In this document: piece after piece, positions 24,578-46,745 of the stretch | Numbering within the stretch: position 1 is the stretch's first letter | Layout of the letters: the number at the start of each line of letters is the position of its first letter | Assembly: GCA_029855935.1 (NCBI GenBank) | Contig: JAGSHN010000012.1 | Location: 128,001 to 192,000, forward strand | From: Candidatus Thorarchaeota archaeon | GTDB lineage: Archaea > Asgardarchaeota > Thorarchaeia > Thorarchaeales > Thorarchaeaceae | Length of the DNA stretch: 64,000 nucleotides | Reading direction: 5' to 3' | The notes under the pieces: model-generated | The model's database searches: none | What the model was told of the DNA's origin: nothing | The model's input: only the letters and a program-made list of their open reading frames with translations | Made by a program: the position numbers and the translations under genes

Positions 24578-25756
24578 CTACTCCCCCTCTAGACTCTTCA
24601 AGTCCTTCTTCTTCTTCGAGATCTTCCTCTTCAGACTCTTGATACGCGCATCGAGTTTCGCAATCTGCTCCTCGTAGGTGTCCTTGCTCATTGCACCAGA
24701 GGCATGCCTCTCCTCCACGTGCTCTCGGAGCTGCTCCACAGACTGAATCTCCCGCTCTAACGCAGCGATGTCGGACTTGATGCGTTCTGCTTCAGCCTCT
24801 TTCTCAGTGCGGAACTCACCAGCGGGAATTATCATTCCCAGTTGTTCCTGTGTCTTCTGTGCAAAGGCTTGAAACTGAGATCGAAGTGACTCGATGTTGT
24901 TCTGGACGCCATCAATCTTCTCGGACAGGCGCTCCATCCCCTTGCTCAGGTCAAGGACTGTGTCGACGAGTCTCCGCAGCATTTTCTCGAAGTCCTTTGG
25001 TATCTGTACTCCTGCGGCCACGGCGACTGCCTGCGATCCTGGCGCAGCAGTCGTTGGTGCAGTCACCTCACTGGGCCGCACTAGGCTCTCAGTACCGCAT
25101 AGCCACCTGAAGGCGTTCAGTGCGAGTGTCCTATTTCCCTTATTCTTGAGGCCGCCACTTCGAAAGACTTCGTAGGTACCGATGCATATCACGCGTCCCT
25201 CGCCATACTCGGCGACAGCCAGCACCGGCTGACTGGCGGGATCGGCTACCGCTGATGTGAGCGCGAGGGCCATTGCCGGACTTGAGACTCGCAGAGTACA
25301 TGCTGCTGACATCACAATCTCGGCCACGTTCTGAGTGACAGGATGCGGGACTATGTCCCTGATGATTGGCATCGTCGGCATTCCGGCATTGTTGCGAGCA
25401 TCCTTCACGGCAGTGTTCTCGAAGACTATGCCGAACTCTTTCGAGACCATACTCATGTTATTCATCAGGCCGCGATCGCCTCCTGAGAGGGAGAGTAGCA
25501 TCAGTCCCCCGCCCTCCTTGACGAATCTCTTGAGTGTGTCAATCTCCGGGGGCCTCAGTTTGGAACTGTTGGGACAGCCGAATACGATTGCACTGGCCTC
25601 TTTCAGCTTTCGCGGCAGGATCATATACTCCGTATAGGGCTCGACATCAAAGCCGTTCTCGCGGAGCAGTTTTCCCAGCTGTGAGTAGGTGGAGTCGAGA
25701 CGGCCTCGCTCGTTCTGCGTCTGGTCAAAGAATATCATCCCTTTCCTGCCGCTCAA
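24578..25756 (-). CDS. GIFT/DUF4350-domain (IFT52-like) protein with C-terminal coiled coil
   Basis: IFFDQTQNE, YSQLGKLL, EIDTLKRFVKEGGGLMLL, EFGIVFENTAV, HPVT, GEGRVICIG, NRTLALNAFRWL. Confidence 0.82.
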   Translation of the reverse strand: MSGRKGMIFFDQTQNERGRLDSTYSQLGKLLRENGFDVEPYTEYMILPRKLKEASAIVFGCPNSSKLRPPEIDTLKRFVKEGGGLMLLSLSGGDRGLMNNMSMVSKEFGIVFENTAVKDARNNAGMPTMPIIRDIVPHPVTQNVAEIVMSAACTLRVSSPAMALALTSAVADPASQPVLAVAEYGEGRVICIGTYEVFRSGGLKNKGNRTLALNAFRWLCGTESLVRPSEVTAPTTAAPGSQAVAVAAGVQIPKDFEKMLRRLVDTVLDLSKGMERLSEKIDGVQNNIESLRSQFQAFAQKTQEQLGMIIPAGEFRTEKEAEAERIKSDIAALEREIQSVEQLREHVEERHASGAMSKDTYEEQIAKLDARIKSLKRKISKKKKDLKSLEGE

Positions 25757-35279: not shown

Positions 35280-36638
35280 ATGGACTTCTACCAAGCGGCA
35301 GGCGTTGAGCCCATTGGCAATCTCCGAAGGACGCATTTGTCAAGCCAGATAACGAACGACTTGGTTGGCCAGACCGTAGTCCTGATGGGCTGGGTTCACA
35401 TCCTACGCGACAAGGGCCGGATCAAGTTTCTCATCCTGAGAGATGAGGGAGGCACGGTCCAGATCACAATTCCGAAGAAGAAGGTGTCTGAGGAGGTCTT
35501 TGATATCTCCGGCCGACTCAAGCCAGAGGCCGTTGTGGCAGTTGAGGGTGAGGTGGTAGAGGCCCCACAGTCAAAGACGGGTGTGGAGGTCATCCCGCAT
35601 TCCATTCACATCCTCAACACTTCTGAGCCTCTGCCCATTGACGTCGTGGAGGGAAAGGTGTCCATAGAGCTTGACACTCGTCTCAATTATCGTATCTTGG
35701 ACCTTCGCAAGCCGACGGTCAATGCAATCTTTCGCATCCAACACTCTCTTGTCCGCTTCTCACGGGAGTTCCTTGAGAGCAACGGCTTTGTCGAGATACA
35801 CACTCCCAAGATTGTGGCTGAGGCGACAGAGGGAGGGGCTAACCTGTTCGAGATACAGTACTTCGAGCGAAAGGCGTTCCTCGCGCAGAGTCCCCAGTTC
35901 TACAAGCAGCTGATGCTGCTGGCTGGCTTTGGCCGCGTCTTTGAGATAGCCCCCGTGTTCCGCGCGGAGAAACATAATACTCGTCGTCACATCAACGAGT
36001 ACACGTCCTTCGATTTCGAGATGGCATGGATTGGAGGTGTGGAGGATGTCATGCAGATGGAGGAGCAGATGCTGAGCTACGCCTTTGCCAAGACCTTGGA
36101 GGCATCAGAGCGGGAGCTCAAACTACTGGGTGTCGATCTCAAGGTTCCGAAGACACCCTTCCCTCGAATCAAGTATGCTGAGGTCATAGACCTGCTCAAC
36201 TCCGAGGGCAAGGAGATCTCCATTCACGACGACCTCGACCCGGAGAGCGAGAGGATGTTGGGAGAGATATTCCCTGAGAAGTTCGGCACCGACTTGGTGT
36301 TCATCACACACTATCCTCTGGAGCTCCGACCAGCGTACACGATGCCGAGCCTGACGGACGAGGGGATGACAGAGAGCTTCGACCTGACCTACAAGGGAAT
36401 GGAGATCACCACCGGCGGGCAGAGAATACATCTCTACGACCTGCTCGTGGAGCGTTTCAAGGCAAAGGGCTTCAACCCCGACCACTTCCGCTTCTACCTC
36501 GACCCGTTCAGGTATGGTGCGCCACCACACGGGGGTCTTGGTCTCGGTGTGGAACGCCTGACGATGCAGCTGCTTGGTCTGGAGAACATCCGTGAGGCCG
36601 CGCTGCTGCCTCGTGACCGCGACCGACTCACCCCATAA
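35280..36638 (+). CDS. aspS: Aspartyl-tRNA synthetase, archaeal type
   Basis: [50 protein letters not shown]. Confidence 0.96.
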
Positions 36639-36729: not shown

Positions 36730-37509
36730 ATGAGTGATGCTTTCCAGTCCGAAGTGTATGCCTCCATTGCCACACTGGACCAGCTCAAGCGTCTCTACGA
36801 CCTCGGCGATATCGATGTCCGCTTCTTCGAGCGTGAGTCGCGAGCATTGATCAACGAGGTTCAGCGTGGTCTCGAACAGATGAAGCGTCTTGGGCTGGAT
36901 GTGCAGGCCTTTCTGACAGACTGGAGCATACACCAGCGTTTTCCGGAGGCTGCGAATCTACTCGGACTGGTCCCTGCGCAGCCGGCAGGCCCGACGTGGA
37001 CGGCGGGCCAGTGGGCATCGAAAGAGGAGTTCTATGACTACCTAGGTCTGCTTGTTCTTGATGTGGCGACCAAACATTCCTCAAAGGGTCTGATCGGTCT
37101 GGCTGAGATGATAGTCGAGGTGCTCCGCAGCCTGCCTAATCCCCAGGTGGCCAAGTTCACTGACGTCATCGAGGCCGTCAACCGCGTTTCGGGGGCTGGA
37201 CTGATTCCCGGTATCCGTACGCTGAAGGGTGGTGTCAAGGTTGTCGAGCTCCGCCCCCTTGAGCTGAGACGTGATCAGGCCGATGTCATCAATCTCGCGG
37301 CGGGCAAGGGCTACGTTTCTCTTGAAGAGGTGATGATGAACCTCGGTTGGTCCGAGGATCACGCACGACGCGTCCTGGCCAGTCTTGTAGAAGCCGGGAT
37401 AGCGGTCGTGAGCCTGAAGTATAGCACAGGTGGCAGATACTATTTCCCCGGGCTCCGTCCGATGGAACAGGATGGTGGCCCGGACGGCAGTCCTACAGTC
37501 TCAGAGTGA
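36730..37509 (+). CDS. vps22: ESCRT-II Vps22/36 (EAP30) protein with N-terminal Vps28-N-like domain
   Basis: EFYDYLGLLVLDV, GLIGLAE, PLELRRDQADVINLA, GYVSLEEV..NLGWSEDHARRVLASLV..G, YYFPGL match SNF8; N-term SEVYASIATLDQLKRLY resembles Vps28. Confidence 0.88.
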   Translation: MSDAFQSEVYASIATLDQLKRLYDLGDIDVRFFERESRALINEVQRGLEQMKRLGLDVQAFLTDWSIHQRFPEAANLLGLVPAQPAGPTWTAGQWASKEEFYDYLGLLVLDVATKHSSKGLIGLAEMIVEVLRSLPNPQVAKFTDVIEAVNRVSGAGLIPGIRTLKGGVKVVELRPLELRRDQADVINLAAGKGYVSLEEVMMNLGWSEDHARRVLASLVEAGIAVVSLKYSTGGRYYFPGLRPMEQDGGPDGSPTVSE

Positions 37510-38179
37510 TGGCATGGCGTTTCTTGTCAAGCCACTCGGCCAGTCCGTCCTCCACCAGGATTTGGAGAGCCCTGTGCAGCTCCTCCTCGGGCAGAGATGA
37601 GAAGGTTTCCTCTGGACACTGAATGACAAGGGTCTTGACATCAATCTGCCGTTCCCCTCGCCTCAGTGCCCATGCGTAGATGACCTCGGCCCACTCCTGC
37701 ACGGAGCGCCAGTATACCCTCAGCCTCCTCTTCTCCTCGTCCATCCACTCTGCGACTCCCTGCCCAACCAACCAGTCCCCAATCAGTCTGAATGCCTCAA
37801 TCTTTCCGTGAATCTCGCCGAACTCTCTCTCTATGATGAAATCGCCAAGCGAAACAACATGGGCACCCTGATGCCTCGCCCAGTCGAGCAGATACTCTCC
37901 CCACTCTGCTGTCCATCTTTCCCTTGCCGCGTCATTCTCTGGAACTGTATACATCCACACGGCGGCGCGCGAGCCACCCCATGGAGGCGGTGGTCCTCTC
38001 TCCCTCTGGGCCACGGTGACTGCCTGCGTCCGCACTCTCGCTGAATCCCTCGTCCTGTCGTGGCGTATCGCACCGGAGATTGGGAGCGGCTGACCTCTCG
38101 CTGTTTCCGTAGCTGGTACAGTGTCCCGCTGTTCCCCGGTTCGTTTCTCCCGCTGTTTCCGTTGTTCTCTCACAGCCAC
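37493..38179 (-). CDS. vps25: ESCRT-II Vps25 with charged N-terminal extension
   Basis: MYTVPENDAARERWTAEWGEYLLDW, GVAEWMD, YWRSVQEWAEVIYAW, FSSLPEEELHRALQILV..GLAE. Confidence 0.88.
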   Translation of the reverse strand: MAVREQRKQREKRTGEQRDTVPATETARGQPLPISGAIRHDRTRDSARVRTQAVTVAQRERGPPPPWGGSRAAVWMYTVPENDAARERWTAEWGEYLLDWARHQGAHVVSLGDFIIEREFGEIHGKIEAFRLIGDWLVGQGVAEWMDEEKRRLRVYWRSVQEWAEVIYAWALRRGERQIDVKTLVIQCPEETFSSLPEEELHRALQILVEDGLAEWLDKKRHAITLRL

Positions 38180-38181
38180 GG

Positions 38182-39381
38182 CTACGGTGCCTCCGCCCAG
38201 CTGACGTACCTGCTTATGTCATTGGCTCTGATGGCTGGCCTCGTCAGGTCGATGGCGTACAGAAAGTCGTCCATACTCACAGGACGCAATACGGGGGTCA
38301 GACCATCACTCGAGAGCTGTCCGGTTCGCTGAAGTTCTCTGATCGGCTCCATTGCAGCCTCCCTGCATATCACGCTGATGTCCCTCCCGCTGTAGCCCTC
38401 GGTCAGGTCGGCAAGATCGCGGAAGCTCACATCTGCAGCGACTTCGACATCACGCATATGGACCCTGAAGATCATCTCCCGGGCATTCAGGTCCGGTAGA
38501 GGCACCAGTATCCGCTTCTCGAATCTGGACAGCAAGGCAAAGTCGAGTTCCCAAGGTAGATTTGTGGCCGCTATCACTGTGACTCGTTCTTCCGGTCTGC
38601 TGTTCAGGCCCTGGAGCTCGGTGAGGAGTTGAGTCTTCAATCGACGTTCTCCTCCGACATCGTCTGAGGAGCGCAGGCTACCGATGGAGTCTATCTCGTC
38701 GACGAAGATGATGGACGGCTGTCTCTCCCGGGCCATTGCGAAGAGAAGGTGGACGAGCCGCTCTGACTCCCCCAACCATTTGCTCACAATATTGGCTGCG
38801 GATACGTTGAAGAAGGTGGCGTTGATCTCTGCGGCTACCGCCTTGGCAATCATGGTCTTTCCGCAACCAGATGGACCATAGAGCAGGATGCCCCTCCACG
38901 GCTGTCTGGCCCGTCCTCGAAATAGCCCCGGATACCTCATTGGGACAATGACTGCGTCGTTGATTGCCTGTTTCGCCATCTCAAGACCCGCCACATCTGT
39001 GAGCCGGACGTTCGGTCTCTCCGTCACCATGGTGTCCTCAAGGGCCTCCATGAGATTGCGAGTTTCTGCAGAATCGGTTGCGAGTTCAGACCGTGGTGAG
39101 GCTGGCGAGACTGGCATGTCCGACGAGCTGGTGGGCCGTGGTCTCCGGGCGCGATGTTCGACAGTCACTCCCGACAGCTGCTTGACTCGCTGTATGCACT
39201 CCTCTGCGCGCCTGTAGTAGTAGTCTCTGACAGAGGGAATGCTTGTAGACCTAGACAGCTGCACGAGGACCCTGCTGGCCTGCAGATATGCCTGACAGGC
39301 CTCTCTTGCGAGGTTCTTCTGGTCCAGCTGTATGGCACGGCCGAGCAGCTCTCTCAGACCGCGGTCTATTCTGTCTGACAT
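38182..39381 (-). CDS. vps4: Vps4 AAA+ ATPase with MIT domain
   Basis: MIT (RAIQLD..EACQAY..RAEECIQRV), PWRGILLYGPSGCGKT, SKWLGESE, FVDEID, ATNLPW, TEGYSGRDI. Confidence 0.93.
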   Translation of the reverse strand: MSDRIDRGLRELLGRAIQLDQKNLAREACQAYLQASRVLVQLSRSTSIPSVRDYYYRRAEECIQRVKQLSGVTVEHRARRPRPTSSSDMPVSPASPRSELATDSAETRNLMEALEDTMVTERPNVRLTDVAGLEMAKQAINDAVIVPMRYPGLFRGRARQPWRGILLYGPSGCGKTMIAKAVAAEINATFFNVSAANIVSKWLGESERLVHLLFAMARERQPSIIFVDEIDSIGSLRSSDDVGGERRLKTQLLTELQGLNSRPEERVTVIAATNLPWELDFALLSRFEKRILVPLPDLNAREMIFRVHMRDVEVAADVSFRDLADLTEGYSGRDISVICREAAMEPIRELQRTGQLSSDGLTPVLRPVSMDDFLYAIDLTRPAIRANDISRYVSWAEAP

Positions 39382-39464
39382 AGGTACCCTCTACTGGTGA
39401 GTCAGAGTGGGATTAAGAACCTCTGTGACTGCTCGGTATTACGTGCCTATGCGTTCCTACTTGT

Positions 39465-40814
39465 TCAGCCGGACGTGATCTGTGCCTGCTCTACTACGAT
39501 GGAGGGTGTGATTGCCTCAGAGGTCCTCCTCACATCCCCTCCGACGAGGATCACTCGTCTGAGCAGGTCGAGCATGTTTATTCCGATGAGAGTACTCTTC
39601 ACAGGGTACCGAATCTCTCCATTCTCGAAATAGTATCCCTCCATCACAAGTGCGCTGAGGTCGCCTGTCGTCATATTCGGTCTGTCGCCCGTGTCGCGAC
39701 AGAGTATACCGCGACCCACCTCTTCAACCAGATCCATCAGCCCGCCTCTTCCCGGTTGGACTATGAGATTACTTGGAGCAATCCTTGGAGGGCTGGAGTA
39801 GGAGGATCGGCTTGCGTGAGCGGTGTTCTCAACTTGATCCTTCTGTGCAGTGTACGAGTTGTGCAGTAGACTCTTTAGTACTCCCTGCTCAAGTAGCATT
39901 ATTCTCCTCGACGGAACCCCCTCTCCGTCGAACGGTCTTGAGCTGACCTCTCCAGGGCTCAGCGCATCATCTACTATAGTCAGGTGTTCAGAGGCTATCT
40001 GCTGTCCGAGGGCATCGGCGACGTACGACCGGCCGAACTGAACCTCCTCAGCGTTGACCGCTCCACCGAACCCGCCGCCAAGTACCGAGCCGACAGCTAT
40101 CGGCCCGAATACCACCGGCATCTTGTCGTTCTCAATTCTTCTGCCTCCGAGGTTTGCGATGACCGCAGCGGCCGCCTCTCTACCGACCTTCTCAGGGTCG
40201 AACTCGCGCAATGCTCGCGCCAGCTCATATTCAGAGCTCGATGTCTGTTCATCCTCTGTCTTGATGGTCGGAGCCGAGTAGATGTATCCGGTAGTCCCCT
40301 CGTAGTATGCCTCGATGCCCAACGAATTCACGATGCCAGCGCCCCCACGCGAGGTCCGCATCTGTGCCTCAATTGCATACTTGTAGTCTGACAAGCTCTC
40401 TTTGGTCGCGTCGACCATCCTTGTGACAATGTCGGCGGCCTCTTCGGAGCTGAGGTTGGCCATCGCCCGGTCGTAGAGTCTCTCAACAACTGGATATCCA
40501 CCGCTCGCCGAGGGGAGCGATCCAAAATCGGGGTCGGGGACAGAGACATGTGCGAGCGAGATGGCTCTCTCGACAGCGGCCCTGACGTCCTCCTCTCGGA
40601 TGGTCGTGACGTATGCAAAGCCGATTCTACTATCAATGACACACCTTATTCCACAGCCACTGTCACACCTCTCTGCAGCGCTCTTGATTGAGTTGTTCTC
40701 CACCTCAATTGTGAACGAGCGAGTGCTCGCCACAAAGGCCTCGGCCTGCTCGGCGCCTTGTCTCTCAGCGTGTCTGACCGCTATCTCAGCGATACCAAGT
40801 ATCTCTTCCCGCAC
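39465..40814 (-). CDS. tldE: TldE/PmbA
   Basis: AEQAEAF, GIRCV, RPFDGEGVP, NMTTGDLS, TPSIVV; no HExxH; GTG start next to tldD stop. Confidence 0.92.
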   Translation of the reverse strand: MREEILGIAEIAVRHAERQGAEQAEAFVASTRSFTIEVENNSIKSAAERCDSGCGIRCVIDSRIGFAYVTTIREEDVRAAVERAISLAHVSVPDPDFGSLPSASGGYPVVERLYDRAMANLSSEEAADIVTRMVDATKESLSDYKYAIEAQMRTSRGGAGIVNSLGIEAYYEGTTGYIYSAPTIKTEDEQTSSSEYELARALREFDPEKVGREAAAAVIANLGGRRIENDKMPVVFGPIAVGSVLGGGFGGAVNAEEVQFGRSYVADALGQQIASEHLTIVDDALSPGEVSSRPFDGEGVPSRRIMLLEQGVLKSLLHNSYTAQKDQVENTAHASRSSYSSPPRIAPSNLIVQPGRGGLMDLVEEVGRGILCRDTGDRPNMTTGDLSALVMEGYYFENGEIRYPVKSTLIGINMLDLLRRVILVGGDVRRTSEAITPSIVVEQAQITSG

Positions 40815-40816
40815 CT

Positions 40817-42202
40817 CTACATCCCTCCGACAGGAACTTCTGTGGCCCGTGCGTGTGGTCCACCGCTCATGTCCGGCACCCATTGACCATTCTTTCCGCA
40901 AGTACCTGCGTCAAGCTCGAAGTCCCTGCCCACCGCGTCTATCTTGGAGAGAACCTCCAGTATGAGACCTGACAGCGAAACATCCCTGACCATCTGGCCA
41001 ATCTCTCCCTTCTTGATCACGTATCCGTATTGGGCTTGAAACATGAAATGTCCCATAGAGGGGTTCGTGTAGCCGTAGTTGAATCTGCACAGGAGAAGGC
41101 CATGTCTGGTGTCCTCAATCAGCTCATCAACATCCCAGTCACCCGGCTCCATGAACGTGTTGCTCATCCTCGGGATGGGTACGTGTGCATAGGACTCAGC
41201 TCTGGCTGCGCCATTCGACTCCATCCCCAGCCTAGATGCCGTTTCGAGAGAGTGGAGTATCTCTGTCAAGATGCCGTCTTTGACAAGGATTCGCTTTCTC
41301 GTCTTTGTCCCTTCCCAGTCATATGGGTAGGATCCGCGGGCACAGTCCAGCGTGGGATCATCACTTATGTTGAGCCACTCTGGTCCGACACTCTGTCCGA
41401 GCTTGTCCTCAAGGACTGTTGTGTGCGCAGGCCAGCCATCGGCCTCACAGGCGTGTCCAAACGCCTCATGCACCATTACGCCGTTGAGGACCGGATCCAT
41501 CACGACATCGTAGACGCCTCCCCTTACAGCCACCGACGAGAGCAGGTCGACGGCGGTTCTTGCGGCTCTCTCTCCAACCGTCTGAGCGTCCTCTTCCATC
41601 ATCATCTCGAACCCGCCCTTTACTCCGACAGACCTGTAGGCACGCTGCCGATTCGCCCCCTCTCTTGCCGTTATTGACGATATGATGCGCGGGAGGGAGT
41701 TCTCAATATACACAGAGGTCCCAAGAGAATTGGCCACATAGAGCTCGCTCCACAGCTCCCCGTATACAGTCCTCGCATTGGAGACACGCTCGTCAAACTC
41801 ACGTGCCTGCATGTCAATCTGTTTGACAAACTCCATCTTCTCCTCCATCGGGACATCAGGGAAGGGGCGCCTGACGGAGATGAACTCCTTCGCCCTGAAA
41901 GTGGGGCCGTCGATCTCAAATCGTTCGGCAACAAGTGGACGGACAGCGAGAGCCAGCTTGGTAGCAGACTCGCCAACCCCTCGCATTCCCTCGGGTGTGA
42001 GTTCCGTCGTCTGAGCAAAGGCCCACGCCCCGTCGATGAACGCCCTCACTCCTGCGCCTCTGAGATGGGCGGACATCGACCTCCGAGTCACGCCATTGAC
42101 CATCTCTATAACGGTAGAGTGAGTGTTCTCAATTCTCACGTCAGCGAACGATGCTCCTGCGTCGAGTGCAGACTCTACGGCAATCTGGGCAAGGTCTTCC
42201 AT
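40817..42202 (-). CDS. tldD: TldD metalloprotease
   Basis: HEAFGHACEAD, DDPT, YDWEG, PIPRMSNT, CGKNGQ. Confidence 0.94.
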   Translation of the reverse strand: MEDLAQIAVESALDAGASFADVRIENTHSTVIEMVNGVTRRSMSAHLRGAGVRAFIDGAWAFAQTTELTPEGMRGVGESATKLALAVRPLVAERFEIDGPTFRAKEFISVRRPFPDVPMEEKMEFVKQIDMQAREFDERVSNARTVYGELWSELYVANSLGTSVYIENSLPRIISSITAREGANRQRAYRSVGVKGGFEMMMEEDAQTVGERAARTAVDLLSSVAVRGGVYDVVMDPVLNGVMVHEAFGHACEADGWPAHTTVLEDKLGQSVGPEWLNISDDPTLDCARGSYPYDWEGTKTRKRILVKDGILTEILHSLETASRLGMESNGAARAESYAHVPIPRMSNTFMEPGDWDVDELIEDTRHGLLLCRFNYGYTNPSMGHFMFQAQYGYVIKKGEIGQMVRDVSLSGLILEVLSKIDAVGRDFELDAGTCGKNGQWVPDMSGGPHARATEVPVGGM

Positions 42203-42340
42203 CAGAATCACTAGCCGGTCGCATACACCGCTCGTTATAATTGCTTTGAAGAGTGAGTGGCGGTCGGTGTAACCTTGGTGATACACAGCTCTTTCTTATC
42301 CCATCACTGAGTCGAGACCAAGGCACACGGAGGCACACAG

Positions 42341-43909
42341 TTGAGTCAAGAATCCGCGCGCGACTCTTGCCAGGTCTGCAGAAGGTCTAACGGCGTCTAC
42401 TTCTGTGAGGACTGCGGTGCTGTTCTGTGTGCTGACTGTGTTGAAACGGTCACAAGCGACTTCTACTTCTGTGGCGACTGCCACTCCCAGATCCCGTCCT
42501 CGGAGACCGACAATCATCCGCAGAAGTGTCCCGAGTGTGGCTCCGAAGAGATTCGTACGGGGCGCCGGGAAGAGGAACGATGCCCCCGGTGTCACTCGAC
42601 AAGGCTTGTGCTCGTGTCGGAAAAGCGACGTACTCTCGCTCAGGACCTGCGTCAGGCAATCAATGTTCTCCAGTACGGACACTCAAGATTTCACGAGCTC
42701 TCTAGACGTCTTACTCGGATTGTCGAGACTCTGGTGTCACTACGGATGGCAAAGTTCGTCCACTACCACTGGCTTGAGCGCCACTTGGAGGAATTGCAGG
42801 AGGAGGTCCCTGCACTCAGGAACCGAATAGTCAACCGGGCCGAGATGGTGGCGCGCCAGATGGCTGCGGAAACATCAGGGATAATGCACGACCCTCTATG
42901 GACGGCTGACCAGTTCCCGTTCATATCAGGTGTGGTGAACAGGCTGCGCGAGCTTGGACGGGAGTACAAGGAGCGAGTCGATGAGACCCTCGCTGGTGCA
43001 TTCCGTCGTCTGGAGGAGATCAGCAAGACGATTGAGGGTCTCGAGTATTTCCGACGAGCCTTTGTGGCCTTTTCTAGCCTCGTCCCCCTTGAGGTCAATG
43101 AGCTGCCCGTCTGTGCACTGCCGGATATCCGCCTCACGGGGTCCGACTTTCTCAAGCACGACAAAGCCGCAGGAACGCTCTATCTGACCGACCGGCGAAT
43201 GGTCTTCATTGCCACCACTGGGACTATTCGAAAGAGGGAGTCCGTGGTCTTTGACTTTCCTCTGCCGTATCTGTCGGGGATTGAGGAGGACGGCAGACGG
43301 AAGAAGCGTCTTGTTCTGAGGATGCAACAAGGCGACATCAGGATAGTCTGTCCTGAGGGAACACGACGTGTGATGAGCGACTACATGGAGATTGCTCGCA
43401 GCTTTGCCAAGTATGCACAGACCAATCTTCAGCGTACGAGGCAGCTGCAGCGGTTCAGTTGTGCGCCTGATGAGGTGAGGATCCGTATATTGGATCTGAT
43501 TGATGACCTGCTCTCTCGAGAACGACGCAGAGCGATTGCCATGAGCGGTACGGGGGCGTACACTCGCTCTCCTCCTCCGGTCCACAGCTGGGGCTATCCG
43601 GAGACCTCGAATAGTCCTAGGGCCACATTCTCGGGGTCGCCATTCAGTCCGCAGGCCACAAGTCCAGATAGTCGCTACAGCTTGGACGGCTCGTATGTGA
43701 GAACGGCTGCGACTTCGCCCCCGCGCGGTGTCTACTCGCAACACTATGGCGACGGGGACATGACTGCACTACTCAATCACGAGATCCAAGAGACAATACG
43801 TGCACTCAGACGGGGTCGACTTCCTCCTGACGAGTTTGTTCGGCGTTATCGTGACCTGATGCGGAGTTCATTTGAGATGGAGCGACGCTTCTACGAAAGG
43901 GTTCGGTAG
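42341..43909 (+). CDS. Multidomain protein: B-box-like and Zn-ribbon fingers, coiled coil, GRAM/GLUE-like PH domain, Pro/Ser-rich linker, steadiness-box-like C-terminus
   Basis: CQVC..FCEDCGAVLCADC plus three more CxxC; AAGTLYLTDRRMVF; IRALRRGRLPPDEFVRRYRDL. Confidence 0.75.
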   Translation: MSQESARDSCQVCRRSNGVYFCEDCGAVLCADCVETVTSDFYFCGDCHSQIPSSETDNHPQKCPECGSEEIRTGRREEERCPRCHSTRLVLVSEKRRTLAQDLRQAINVLQYGHSRFHELSRRLTRIVETLVSLRMAKFVHYHWLERHLEELQEEVPALRNRIVNRAEMVARQMAAETSGIMHDPLWTADQFPFISGVVNRLRELGREYKERVDETLAGAFRRLEEISKTIEGLEYFRRAFVAFSSLVPLEVNELPVCALPDIRLTGSDFLKHDKAAGTLYLTDRRMVFIATTGTIRKRESVVFDFPLPYLSGIEEDGRRKKRLVLRMQQGDIRIVCPEGTRRVMSDYMEIARSFAKYAQTNLQRTRQLQRFSCAPDEVRIRILDLIDDLLSRERRRAIAMSGTGAYTRSPPPVHSWGYPETSNSPRATFSGSPFSPQATSPDSRYSLDGSYVRTAATSPPRGVYSQHYGDGDMTALLNHEIQETIRALRRGRLPPDEFVRRYRDLMRSSFEMERRFYERVR

Positions 43910-44000
43910 GCTCCGCCAGAACCCCTGCGTGAAACTATGAGGCGTGCACGGACTGTGGGACATTGAGCGTGAGGACATTGAGCGTGAGTCTGAGCGGAGT

Positions 44001-44633
44001 CTAGAGGCCAAGCCTCCTCTCAAGCGCCTGAATCTCTTCTGCCAGTCTGTCGGGTGGTGCCTTGGTGGATGGAGTGGTCCCCCTACGGCCGCCACTCTCC
44101 ACAACCTCGGAATCTATCTCCGCCATCACGTCTGCCAGCTCCTCAGGAGCAATTCTGCCATCCGTGGCTCCGTGGAGGGTCTCCTCGAAGATGCCGTTCT
44201 CAATCTCGAACTGCTCGAGTCTTCGTGCCACCTCGTCGAGATTCTGAATGACCCTCTTGGCACTGATCTCTTCTCCGAGGATACCAAAGATTGCTGCCAC
44301 CCTCTCCATGCCTATGTTGACTCTTGCTGTTATCCTCGCTCGCTTGATGTAGGACGCAATACGTAGAAGAGAGAACCGGACACGCTCGATCTTGAGAATA
44401 TCACGATGTGTCCGCAGGACCTCCCCGGCATAGAGTATGCAGGCCTCGTTCTGCCCGTTTCTGCGAGCTGTCACTGCCCGCCTCTTGGCATCGGCAGCCA
44501 GTTTCTCCAGATGGTTGCGCTCACGTTCGAGCTCTCTGGCCATCACCTGAAGACCGCTGACAATCTCCGTGACATCTGGCTTTTTTCTGCCCCATATGGC
44601 GGCCCGCTTCAACAGACGCAATAGTTTCACCAC
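44001..44633 (-). CDS. ESCRT-III, Vps2/24/46 (CHMP1-like) class
   Basis: LQVMARELER, ARRNGQNEACILYAGEVLR, EELADVMAEI, C-term MIM1-like helix LAEEIQALERRL. Confidence 0.87.
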   Translation of the reverse strand: MVKLLRLLKRAAIWGRKKPDVTEIVSGLQVMARELERERNHLEKLAADAKRRAVTARRNGQNEACILYAGEVLRTHRDILKIERVRFSLLRIASYIKRARITARVNIGMERVAAIFGILGEEISAKRVIQNLDEVARRLEQFEIENGIFEETLHGATDGRIAPEELADVMAEIDSEVVESGGRRGTTPSTKAPPDRLAEEIQALERRLGL

Positions 44634-44717: not shown

Positions 44718-46745
44718 TCACATCCGTTCGATGACCGGGATACCGAGCATTTGAAGGCAGTTGCGTATGGTGTCCCTGAACGCTCTGACAAGGGCAAGTC
44801 TTGCCCTTCGGAGGTCGCCATCAGCCTTCAGCACGGGACAGTTGTCGTAGAACTTGCTGAAGAGGGTCGCAATCTCGAAAGCATATTCTGTGAGTCTATT
44901 GGAGCTGAAAGCTGTACCACGTACCTCCTTTTTCAGTCCCCTGACGACCTGAACCACCTCGTAGGGGAATCTGGACAGTGCCTTCACGAGCGCGAACTCA
45001 TATGGTGTCACCAGGAGCGTGGCGTCGCCTCCCTCCCCTTCATCGCCAGCGCGTTCGAGTATCCGTTGGGCGCGCGCATAGGAGTACTGCAGGTATGGCC
45101 CGGTGTCGCCCTCGAAGTCTAGCACCGAGTCCCACCGGAAGGTTATCTTCCTGTCAGGTGAGGCATTCAACATGAAGTACCTGAGCGCCCCAACAGCAAC
45201 CTGTCCCGCGACGCGGTTCTTGAACTCATCGCTGGCGTCAGGATTTCTCTTCTCGACCTCAATCCTAGCGATCTCCTCCGCCCGGTCAAGAACGTCGTCC
45301 ACAGTATAACCTATCCATGTCCCCTTCCGTCCCGAGAACTCGGTGTCCTCAAGCCCGACGAACTCGTAGGCTATGTGGTGAGAGTTCTCGCTCTCCCTCT
45401 TGTAGCCCAACAGTTCGAGGATGTTGTAGATCAGCCTCTGAGGGTGGGCCTGTGCTGCAGCTATTACATTGAACACGAGGTCCACCTTACCCAAGTCGTG
45501 TCTATGACCCTCAAGAGTGGTACGATACACAGGCTTACCATTGGGCTGGACCTCGAACTCGACGTACCTGAATGGGTCCTCGATTATCTGATGTTTCCAC
45601 ATCTGAAACGCCAGGTCTGCGCCGGTGTAGGTACGTGTCCCATCTGACCGGAACAGCACCTTGTATGGATCCTTCATCCCCTTGAATTCCTCAAGGTCGT
45701 CGAGCTTTGCAACGATACATCCTGCCTTTTCGCCCTCCTGAAGGATCATCACCGAGGGGCATTTGAGAATCATCTTCTTTGCGATGTCCAGCAGGCCGCT
45801 GTGAGCAATGGAGCTCTCCCAGACCTGATAGTCGTGGTAGATGCCAAGTCGGTATGCTGTCTGACACTGTGCTTTCAGACACTCTGATACCATCTTCTCA
45901 CTGAACCTGGCCTCGTCAGAGTCGGGAATCTCCAGCTGTCTCGCCACCTCCCTCACGGCACGCTCCACTGCAGGGTCGCTCTCGAAGTCCCTCTGAATGT
46001 CAACATACACCCTGCCGAGGAAGTGGTCGTACTTCTCTCCCTTCTCGGGCTGTAGGTCGCCATCCATGAGCCGCCATGTCAGCTGCGCAATCTGGAGGCC
46101 GAGGTCATTGATATAGTCGAGTCTGATGACCTCAAAACCCACCATCTCAAGGACGTTGCAGAGAGTGTCTCCTAGGACCGCATTCCTTGCGTGCCCGATA
46201 TGCCACGGCTTTGACGGGTTGACCGCGGGAAACTCCACCAGAGCCCGTTTCCCCTCAAAGTCTCTGGTCCTCCCGTAGCTCGGTCCGGTCTCTGAGATTG
46301 CGTTGATGACGAAACGGGCAACTACCGCACGGTCGAGGAACAGGTTGATGTATGGCCCTTTCACCTCCACTCTCTCGAACAGTGGCTCCGCATCAATCGC
46401 GGTCTTGACCCTCTCTGCGACCTCAGCCGCAATTTGCACAGGACTCCTTCTCAGATGCTTCGCCAGCGCGAAGGCAACGGTCGTGGCCAGGTCCCCGAGA
46501 GCAGGGTCGGGCGGTACCTCCAAGAGATCAAGACTCTCATCGGCCCCTATGTCAGCTGCTTGTGCGATAATGTCAGCTGCCGTCTTCAGCATATGTTCCC
46601 AGGGGTTGATGACCGGTGATCGCACTGTCGAGCTCACCTGCTCGGGGTCACTCGGTGTGGTTCTCCTCATAAATGACGCGATGGGTGGCTGTTCGGCGAC
46701 CTCTTTCTCCTCTCCTAACACGAGCCGACGAAGGGAGCGGAGCAT
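44718..46745 (-). CDS. argS: Arginyl-tRNA synthetase, archaeal type
   Basis: GDLAT, GPYINL, NPSKPWHIGHARN, FSGRKG, GPYLQYSYAR, FYDNCPVL, ERM. Confidence 0.96.
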   Translation of the reverse strand: MLRSLRRLVLGEEKEVAEQPPIASFMRRTTPSDPEQVSSTVRSPVINPWEHMLKTAADIIAQAADIGADESLDLLEVPPDPALGDLATTVAFALAKHLRRSPVQIAAEVAERVKTAIDAEPLFERVEVKGPYINLFLDRAVVARFVINAISETGPSYGRTRDFEGKRALVEFPAVNPSKPWHIGHARNAVLGDTLCNVLEMVGFEVIRLDYINDLGLQIAQLTWRLMDGDLQPEKGEKYDHFLGRVYVDIQRDFESDPAVERAVREVARQLEIPDSDEARFSEKMVSECLKAQCQTAYRLGIYHDYQVWESSIAHSGLLDIAKKMILKCPSVMILQEGEKAGCIVAKLDDLEEFKGMKDPYKVLFRSDGTRTYTGADLAFQMWKHQIIEDPFRYVEFEVQPNGKPVYRTTLEGHRHDLGKVDLVFNVIAAAQAHPQRLIYNILELLGYKRESENSHHIAYEFVGLEDTEFSGRKGTWIGYTVDDVLDRAEEIARIEVEKRNPDASDEFKNRVAGQVAVGALRYFMLNASPDRKITFRWDSVLDFEGDTGPYLQYSYARAQRILERAGDEGEGGDATLLVTPYEFALVKALSRFPYEVVQVVRGLKKEVRGTAFSSNRLTEYAFEIATLFSKFYDNCPVLKADGDLRRARLALVRAFRDTIRNCLQMLGIPVIERM

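Follow-up and report, generated by a model that had tools for sequence, protein, structure and literature searches.

A Thorarchaeota ESCRT locus with a Vps28-N-like hairpin on Vps22 and a Zn/PH/steadiness-box protein

Does a compact group of ESCRT genes in a Thorarchaeota genome, two of which encode fusion proteins, represent a re-wired ESCRT-I/II machine, as a sequence-only reading proposed, or an arrangement already known? [quoted passage not shown] We conclude, with a probability of about 0.8, that this is an ordinary Thorarchaeota (Asgard) ESCRT locus, the domain architectures of which have already been published and for which a five-step working model can be offered. The source genome is 2.97 Mb long and 97.3% complete; the window is the whole 64,000-nucleotide stretch of it that was analysed.

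Genes of the locus and their order in relatives

All five ESCRT genes that the sequence-only reading had placed within 8 kb were found between positions 36730 and 44633 of the window. Pfam matches of the translations and the structural models agreed on a Vps28N-like/Vps22 fusion, Vps25, Vps4, a Zn/coiled-coil/GLUE-like/steadiness-box (SB) protein and a CHMP1-like ESCRT-III. An NCBIfam search left the ESCRT-I, ESCRT-II and ESCRT-III proteins of the locus without names.

The gene for the Vps22 fusion (36730–37509, plus strand) and vps25 (37493–38179, minus strand; Pfam ESCRT-II, 2.3e-14) are convergent, and their 3' ends overlap by 17 bp. Vps25 consists of two winged helices and a charged N-terminal extension of about 75 aa; its GTG start abuts the stop codon of vps4 (38182–39381, minus strand), and in relatives vps4 is directly followed by Vps25 products of 231–240 aa. 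The Vps4 protein has an MIT domain (Pfam MIT, 2.8e-6, narrowly missing the cut-off), a single AAA module (AAA, 6e-40, with the AAA lid) and the Vps4 C-terminal helix (Vps4_C, 1e-4). Its match to NCBIfam CdvC, at 1e-81, falls short of the equivalog cut-off. The probable ESCRT-IIIA gene (44001–44633, minus strand; Pfam Snf7, 6e-9), apparently of the Vps2/24/46, CHMP1-like class, adjoins the gene of the 522-aa Znr_CC_PH_SB protein (42341–43909, plus strand). Its product appears, from a motif read by eye, to end in a MIM1-like C-terminal helix. A second ESCRT-III, ESCRT-IIIB, is encoded off the locus on contig 27 of the source genome; the two are distinct paralogues, with a similarity of only E 0.4.

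Between vps4 and the Znr_CC_PH_SB gene, 2.8 kb of the 8 kb are filled by a TldD/PmbA metalloprotease pair (39465–42286, minus strand; Pfam PmbA_TldD domains at 1e-63 to 1e-64), on which the sequence-only reading was silent. The pair is non-ESCRT, yet it is a steady neighbour of the Znr_CC_PH_SB gene in Thorarchaeota, and in three relatives with conserved synteny of the ESCRT genes it is divergent from that gene. It was found that the block of PmbA, TldD, the SB gene and ESCRT-IIIA is inverted here, both against three Thorarchaeota contigs and against the gene spacing of a genome of the same genus, so that the proteases now separate vps4 from the SB gene. A search for inverted repeats at the borders of this 5.3-kb block gave none beyond matches of chance size.

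An orthologous five-gene cluster, ThorAB25_08990-09030, was used in two-hybrid assays by Hatano et al. 2022 (PMC9192718). It contains the same SB protein, ESCRT-IIIA, Vps4, Vps25 and Vps22, with the same pattern at the N-termini, and the position and N-terminal pattern of our ESCRT-IIIA are those of ThorAB25_09000 ('ESCRT3A'). The two systems are also alike in that ESCRT-IIIB is encoded elsewhere and ubiquitin is absent.

The two hairpin proteins

The Vps22 fusion comprises a Vps28-N-like hairpin (aa 1–80), a disordered linker (aa 83–92) and an EAP30 helix with two winged-helix domains (aa 98–240), and it is 54–69% identical to its Thorarchaeota homologues. Pfam EAP30 matched residues 72–229 at 1e-9, above the cut-off. 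In the AF2 model (pLDDT 84), the helices 2–24 and 30–53 had a pLDDT of 93–98. When the model was compared with solved structures, residues 94–245 aligned with human Vps22 (3cuq_A) at Z 12.1 (Foldseek, 4e-9), and residues 1–80 aligned with a chain of the human ESCRT-I headpiece (6vme_E) at Z 11.4 (rmsd 2.1 Å over 78 residues) and with yeast Vps28 (2caz_E) at Z 8.9. The latter matches surfaced with an exhaustive aligner; Foldseek on the whole model gave only Vps22/Vps36 and generic winged helices. In addition, residues 9–71 weakly matched the N part of Pfam VPS28, as did 37 of the 44 family members (best 1.9e-4, sub-threshold). As a fold, the helical hairpin is simple. The N-domain is nevertheless, to judge by the model, specifically Vps28-N-like, and the earlier claim of a domain of this type on Vps22 was thus borne out.

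The Znr_CC_PH_SB protein begins with 12 cysteines arranged as six CxxC pairs (residues 10–84), which may form three Zn-ribbon-type sites; all 12 are conserved in every homologue retaining the N-terminus. They are followed by a helical bundle or coiled coil (aa 92–247), a GRAM/GLUE-type PH domain (aa 242–360), further helices (aa 363–403), a disordered P/S/Y linker (aa 406–469) and a Vps23-type steadiness-box hairpin (aa 471–521). The AF2 model had a pLDDT of 81 overall and of about 95 in the hairpin. The PH domain aligned with the GRAM domain of MTMR2 (Z 12.2), with Lam6 (Z 11.8) and with the GLUE domain of EAP45 (2hth_B, Z 11.3), so a GLUE-like module does sit on the Vps23-like subunit, as had been proposed. 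No PI3P equivalent is known among archaeal lipids. The Vps23-core-like character of the C-terminal hairpin was likewise upheld: Pfam Vps23_core was matched by 21 of the 49 family members (best 7.5e-5) and Mod_r by 12 of the 49, all below the curated cut-off, and the SB profile found yeast Vps23 (2p22_A) in the PDB at E 0.018.

Both architectures are identical to families described by Makarova et al. 2024 (PMC10936438) as 'Vps22 fused to an SB' and 'Znr_CC_PH_SB', for the second of which they predicted a place in ESCRT-I and binding to membranes by its PH domain. The first protein matches 'Vps22#' (cog.002769), with the EAP30/Vps22 tandem winged-helix core and the N-terminal SB-type hairpin on one polypeptide; the second matches cog.011556, with the three Zn-ribbon-type sites, the coiled coil followed by PH and the C-terminal SB all present. 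To that description we add that the SB of Vps22 is, on the model, of the Vps28-N type, that the full fusion is limited to the window's order among about 150 genomes, and that the two hairpins are predicted to share an interface. We found no published statement of the exclusive clade-level pattern or of the predicted interface, and in the literature of 2023–2026 nothing more specific on this architecture.

Missing components and distribution among Asgard genomes

Neither ubiquitin nor E2 was found in the whole genome; the same searches find both in other Asgard genomes. One ThiF/MoeB-type E1-like gene is present on another contig, and such genes are usual in archaea. The search for UEV (PF05743) gave no match in the source genome, and the control genomes likewise gave none; UEV-Vps23 has been reported absent from Thorarchaeia in the literature. 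The lack of UEV, ubiquitin and E2 that had been noted for the window therefore extends to the genome searched, with the same caveat for UEV. A search of the genome with PF03997 for a Vps28 with the C-terminal four-helix bundle gave only the N-part match of Vps22 and one weak match to a 444-aa protein, the gene of which lies 136 kb downstream on the contig of the locus. This candidate was rejected, since it is a generic coiled coil that matches many other proteins just as weakly and has no Vps28 among its PDB matches. The genome holds a single EAP30-family gene, and no Vps36 paralogue was found in this 97.3% complete assembly. Most Thorarchaeota have a second EAP30-like protein of about 780 aa, not found in the source genome, so the composition of ESCRT-II may differ in relatives.

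We also determined the distribution of these genes across a sample of about 150 Asgard genomes. The complete Vps28-N/Vps22 fusion was present in all 26 members of the window's family and in the sole genome of the sister family (27/27 of the order), whereas the matches outside the order were without all or most of the N-domain. Vps28 was found in none of the 26 genomes of the family and in 102 of 123 outside the order; E2 in one of the 26 (weakly) and in 108 of 124 outside the family. When linkage and ubiquitin co-occurrence were compared, as had been suggested, linkage was kept in the relatives and ubiquitin was found in 0/26 genomes of the family against 107/124 outside it. All 26 genomes of the family have the Zn/PH/SB gene, and so do many Asgard families with E2 and ubiquitin. 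The idea that Zn fingers stand in for UEV must therefore be modified: as the protein has a wide distribution and occurs together with ubiquitin in other lineages, it is not a Thorarchaeota-specific replacement.

In comparison with eukaryotic ESCRT-I (Vps23/TSG101, Vps28, Vps37; PDB 2CAZ, 2F6M, 6VME), the helical-hairpin head elements, the Vps28-N fold and the Vps23-core matches are shared, whereas UEV, the Vps28 C-terminal bundle, Vps37 and Mvb12 are missing and the Vps28-N unit lies within the Vps22 polypeptide. The eukaryotic head contains three hairpins, and only two kinds were seen here. The source genome was searched for further SB or Vps28-N paralogues and none were found. A candidate third hairpin in the tail of an IFT52/GIFT-like protein (24578–25756, minus strand) was not supported (hhalign against the SB profile, probability 4.6%); the GIFT domain of this protein is real. 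Similarly, eukaryotic ESCRT-II (Vps22, Vps36 and two Vps25; PDB 3CUQ, 1U5T) shares the Vps22 and Vps25 winged-helix cores with this locus, but here the GLUE-like PH domain is on the ESCRT-I-like protein and not on ESCRT-II.

Predicted hairpin contact and working model

An interaction between the two hairpins, part of the original proposal, was examined by controlled complex prediction. The N-hairpin of Vps22 and the SB hairpin scored 0.82 in three runs, and the best control 0.00; 58 of 80 solved complexes pass the mark used, against 2 of 110 mismatched pairs. The partners had a pLDDT of at least 76 and the contacts agreed by at least 95%. The residues of the interface are better conserved than the rest of the domain in both partners (entropy 0.66 against 1.34 in one, p 0.009, and 1.10 against 1.58 in the other, p 0.044). 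The two hairpin families have no detectable similarity to each other (hhalign probability 14.7%), and homology between them was rejected. The prediction speaks for a contact of the two hairpins by way of the best-conserved residues in each protein. The pass may, however, stem from solved Vps23:Vps28 heads that the model has memorised, and to that extent it would show likeness rather than binding.

Gene content, folds, the distribution among genomes and a predicted interface are what the analysis shows; the binding and functional steps of the working model are ones that we infer. First, Znr_CC_PH_SB would be held at the membrane by its GRAM/GLUE-type PH domain, with the Zn modules and the coiled coil available for binding of cargo or partners and for self-association. 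Second, its Vps23-type hairpin would pack on the Vps28-N-type hairpin of Vps22 to give an ESCRT-I-like 'head', and, as the latter hairpin is fused to Vps22, the link between ESCRT-I and ESCRT-II would be a peptide linker and not the eukaryotic Vps28-C:Vps36 contact. Such a covalent bridge is plausible from the models, but incremental. Third, Vps25 would be bound by the winged helices of Vps22, which is probably a homodimer, given that the search of the source genome turned up no further EAP30-family (Vps36-like) gene. Fourth, Vps25 would nucleate ESCRT-IIIB, and ESCRT-IIIA and Vps4 would follow; the locus thus falls short of the complete adaptor to ESCRT-III first envisaged, which needs ESCRT-IIIB from another contig. 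Fifth, recruitment would be independent of ubiquitin, since neither ubiquitin and E2 nor UEV and Vps28-C were found in the genome.

The homodimer could also be the whole purpose of the Vps22 hairpin. It would then replace the N-terminal helices of canonical Vps22, which are missing from the AF2 model, and join two ESCRT-II halves, and the SB protein would enter the pathway otherwise or not at all. The lack of a Vps36-like partner is consistent with this, as is the self-interaction of Thorarchaeota Vps22 in two-hybrid assays, reported by Hatano et al. 2022 (PMC9192718). However, the hairpin resembles Vps28-N and not the helical domain of Vps22/Vps36, the heterotypic prediction far exceeded its controls and runs through the conserved residues, and the two roles are compatible with each other. 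We therefore consider it unlikely that the hairpin serves homodimerisation instead of SB binding.

It is much less probable still that the 522-aa protein is a TRIM-like adaptor or ligase (B-box/RING, coiled coil, C-terminal domain) of another pathway which resembles an SB protein by chance. Weak Pfam zf-B_box matches (1e-4), the order of Zn sites, coiled coil and C-terminal domain, and SB matches below the Pfam thresholds would fit such a protein, but the gene adjoins ESCRT-IIIA, vps4, vps25 and vps22 in every Thorarchaeota locus examined, it occurs throughout the family, its profile matches are specific to the Vps23 and Vps37 cores, and no ubiquitin or E2 was found for a ligase to use. Finally, the view of a previously undescribed machine is the least credible: its domain layout and ubiquitin absence are real, but both architectures and the ESCRT-I/ESCRT-II assignment (PMC10936438), and the Thorarchaeota lack of ubiquitin and the experimental use of the orthologues (PMC9192718), were already published.

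Within the ordinary ESCRT locus that we favour, the chances appear evenly balanced that Vps22 acquired the Vps28-N hairpin within the window's order, in the very clade without free Vps28, ubiquitin, E2 and UEV, leaving a minimal ubiquitin-independent adaptor of three proteins (Znr_CC_PH_SB, Vps28N-Vps22 and Vps25) with a covalent ESCRT-I/II link. The window is one more example of a published arrangement and therefore changes little by itself. The clade-wide pattern of fusion and loss, together with the predicted Vps28-N:Vps23-SB contact, could guide minimal constructs for tests of ubiquitin-independent ESCRT recruitment, and the three-protein adaptor, if confirmed, would be a simple natural system for the role of ESCRT-I/II without ubiquitin.

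Genes of the ESCRT locus and their order

Genes in the window were called from an ORF listing and Pfam matches. The locus is flanked by genes for an AspRS/AsnRS-type synthetase (35280–36638, +) and ArgRS (44718–46745, −), and it encodes a 259-aa Vps22 fusion (36730–37509, +; EAP30 1e-9 over residues 72–229, weak VPS28 match over residues 9–71), Vps25 (37493–38179, −), Vps4 (38182–39381, −; MIT, AAA and Vps4_C), two TldD/PmbA metalloproteases (39465–42286, −), a 522-aa protein designated Zn/PH/SB (SB, steadiness box; 42341–43909, +; weak B-box and Vps23_core matches) and a Snf7-family ESCRT-III (44001–44633, −). The gene list that the sequence-only reading had given for 36730–44633 was confirmed; it omitted the TldD/PmbA pair, about one third of the interval. 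The genome (2.97 Mb, 32 contigs, 97.3% complete) holds the window at positions 128001–192000 of contig 21. Homologues of both fusion proteins carry Candidatus Thorarchaeota names, and their identities were 39–51% for the 522-aa protein and 54–69% for the Vps22 fusion.

Conserved linkage was also found in relatives. Three Thorarchaeota contigs share the order ArgRS, PmbA, TldD, SB gene, ESCRT-IIIA, Vps4, Vps25, Vps22, AspRS, and the window has the same gene set except that a 5.3-kb block of PmbA, TldD, the SB gene and ESCRT-IIIA (39465–44633) is inverted, which places the proteases upstream of vps4–vps25 in the same direction. No inverted repeats were found at the borders of the block. In a genome of the same genus, the 5-kb spacing and the opposite strands are those of the usual order. 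ArgRS and AspRS genes were the flanks at each Thorarchaeota ESCRT locus examined, and in every one the TldD/PmbA pair was divergent from the Zn/PH/SB gene (window 39465–42286; relatives' loci L012, 2206–4955, and L013, 7079–9815).

Vps25 has an N-terminal extension of about 75 aa, rich in Lys, Glu and Arg and probably disordered. The GTG start codon of its gene follows the vps4 stop by two bases, a spacing suggestive of translational coupling between vps4 and vps25; at the 3' end, the gene runs 17 bp into vps22, which is convergent.

Domains of the two fusion proteins and a predicted contact

The AlphaFold2 model of the Vps22 fusion (pLDDT 84, 51-row alignment) has a confident hairpin (helices 2–24 and 30–53), short helices up to residue 78, a disordered linker (83–92), and a helix followed by two winged helices (98–240). 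In an exhaustive structural search, residues 94–245 matched human Vps22 (3cuq_A, Z 12.1). Residues 1–80 matched chain 6vme_E of the human ESCRT-I headpiece (Z 11.4, rmsd 2.1 Å over 78 residues), which we infer from its residue numbering to be VPS28, and chain 2caz_E of the yeast ESCRT-I core (Z 8.9, 22% identity), an entry with the Vps28 sequence on two chains. The N part of Pfam VPS28 was matched by 37 of 44 family N-domains (best 1.9e-4), and a profile of these domains found yeast Vps28 N-domains at E 0.05–0.09.

In the 522-aa protein, modelled at pLDDT 81, a Zn module is followed by long helices (92–247), a beta-sandwich with a C-terminal helix (242–360), further helices, a disordered P/S/Y linker (406–469) and a confident hairpin (471–521). 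The 12 Cys of the Zn module form six CxxC pairs, all of which are kept wherever the region is present. The beta domain resembles GRAM/GLUE-type PH domains (MTMR2, Z 12.2; Lam6, Z 11.8; the GLUE domain of EAP45/Vps36, 2hth_B, Z 11.3, 20% identity); 'GLUE-like' is a fair label, although the likeness is not unique to GLUE. In 21 of 49 family members the C-terminal hairpin matched Vps23_core, and in 12 it matched Mod_r, the Vps37 family; its profile found yeast Vps23 cores at E 0.018–0.078. Fold and profile matches thus support the domains that had been proposed for both proteins.

The complex of Vps22(1–82) and the SB tail (462–522) was predicted with a separate alignment for each. Scores were 0.82, 0.82 and 0.83 (best of three controls, 0.00), with a partner pLDDT of at least 76 and contact agreement of at least 95% between runs. 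Among solved complexes, 58 of 80 reach the mark for such predictions, as do 2 of 110 among mismatched pairs; with own alignments these counts are approximate only. The pass may reflect the memory of the model, because Vps23:Vps28 heads have already been solved; what the prediction shows is likeness rather than binding. The predicted interface would comprise, on the Vps22 side, the invariant helix ASIATLDQ and, on the SB side, R490, Y503, M507, R508 and S510, and in both domains its residues are conserved above the remainder of the domain.

Distribution across Asgard genomes

About 150 genomes spread over the phylum were sampled; counts outside the window's family include the single genome of another family of the same order. 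Ubiquitin was found in 0/26 genomes of the window's family, 0/1 of the sister genome and 107/124 outside; the corresponding counts were 1/26 (weak, 3e-5), 0/1 and 108/124 for E2, and 0/26, 1/1 and 103/124 for full-length Vps28, the match in the sister genome being the Vps22 fusion itself. The full-length fusion (profile positions 1 to about 248) was present in 26/26 and 1/1, and elsewhere no match was full length: outside the order most Vps22 matches start near position 77–114, covering only the winged-helix part, and a few in four other families start at 19–53. In the window's own genome, ubiquitin, E2 and Vps28 were looked for and none was found, a result validated by the matches of the same searches in other sampled genomes. 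A UEV search, confined to the window's own genome, gave no match.

The Zn/PH/SB protein was present in 26/26 and 1/1 and is widespread outside the family, and many families that have it retain ubiquitin and E2. What is specific to this lineage is thus that Vps22 carries Vps28-N and that Vps28, ubiquitin and E2 are lacking, and not that Zn/PH/SB took the place of UEV-Vps23; the proposed swap of Zn fingers for UEV does not hold as a change peculiar to Thorarchaeota. Since the sampled genomes are kin, the pattern counts as one evolutionary event and not as a statistic. A covalent bridge from ESCRT-I to ESCRT-II is plausible, with the hairpin prediction and the clade-wide pattern behind it.

Other ESCRT parts and published systems

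A profile search with both hairpins found no second copy of either in the window's own genome, which has one EAP30-family gene. A second EAP30/Vps22-like protein of about 780–850 aa, with a C-terminal EAP30 region, occurs in at least 17 of 26 sampled Thorarchaeota genomes and is a possible Vps36 analogue; the window's own genome gave no match to it. The single copy examined, from the same genus (779 aa; locus L018, 623–2962; G069:C1:696622–698961), has an Ig-like (CarboxypepD_reg) domain ahead of the EAP30 region. A 444-aa coiled-coil protein (G000:C21:327351–328685; L003, 1351–2685) gave a full-length-looking but weak Pfam VPS28 match (E 0.009), which is probably compositional. The protein of 24578–25756 (−) has an IFT52/GIFT domain (IFT52_GIFT, 1e-17), a long coiled-coil tail and no signal peptide; a steadiness box was not detectable in its tail (hhalign probability 4.6%).

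A second, very divergent ESCRT-III (G000:C27:58172–58660; L005, 1399–2079, −; Snf7 1e-13) lies apart from the cluster on contig 27, beside a HAD hydrolase gene, and is presumably ESCRT-IIIB; ThorAB25 likewise has a separate ESCRT-IIIB gene.

The sequence-only reading had considered the architecture undescribed. Both fusions and the absence of ubiquitin have been published, and neither is new. According to Makarova et al. [quoted passage not shown] UEV-Vps23 is absent from Loki- and Thorarchaeia (Lu et al., bioRxiv 2023.07.25.550441). In Hatano et al. 2022 (PMC9192718), Thorarchaeota are repeatedly stated to seem to lack ubiquitin, and the Supplementary Data list ThorAB25_08990 'SB', 09000 'ESCRT3A', 09010 'Vps4', 09020 'Vps25' and 09030 'Vps22', which were used in two-hybrid assays; the sequences given there follow the same pattern as the proteins of the window. 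As a whole, the finding is a further example of this published Thorarchaeota system.
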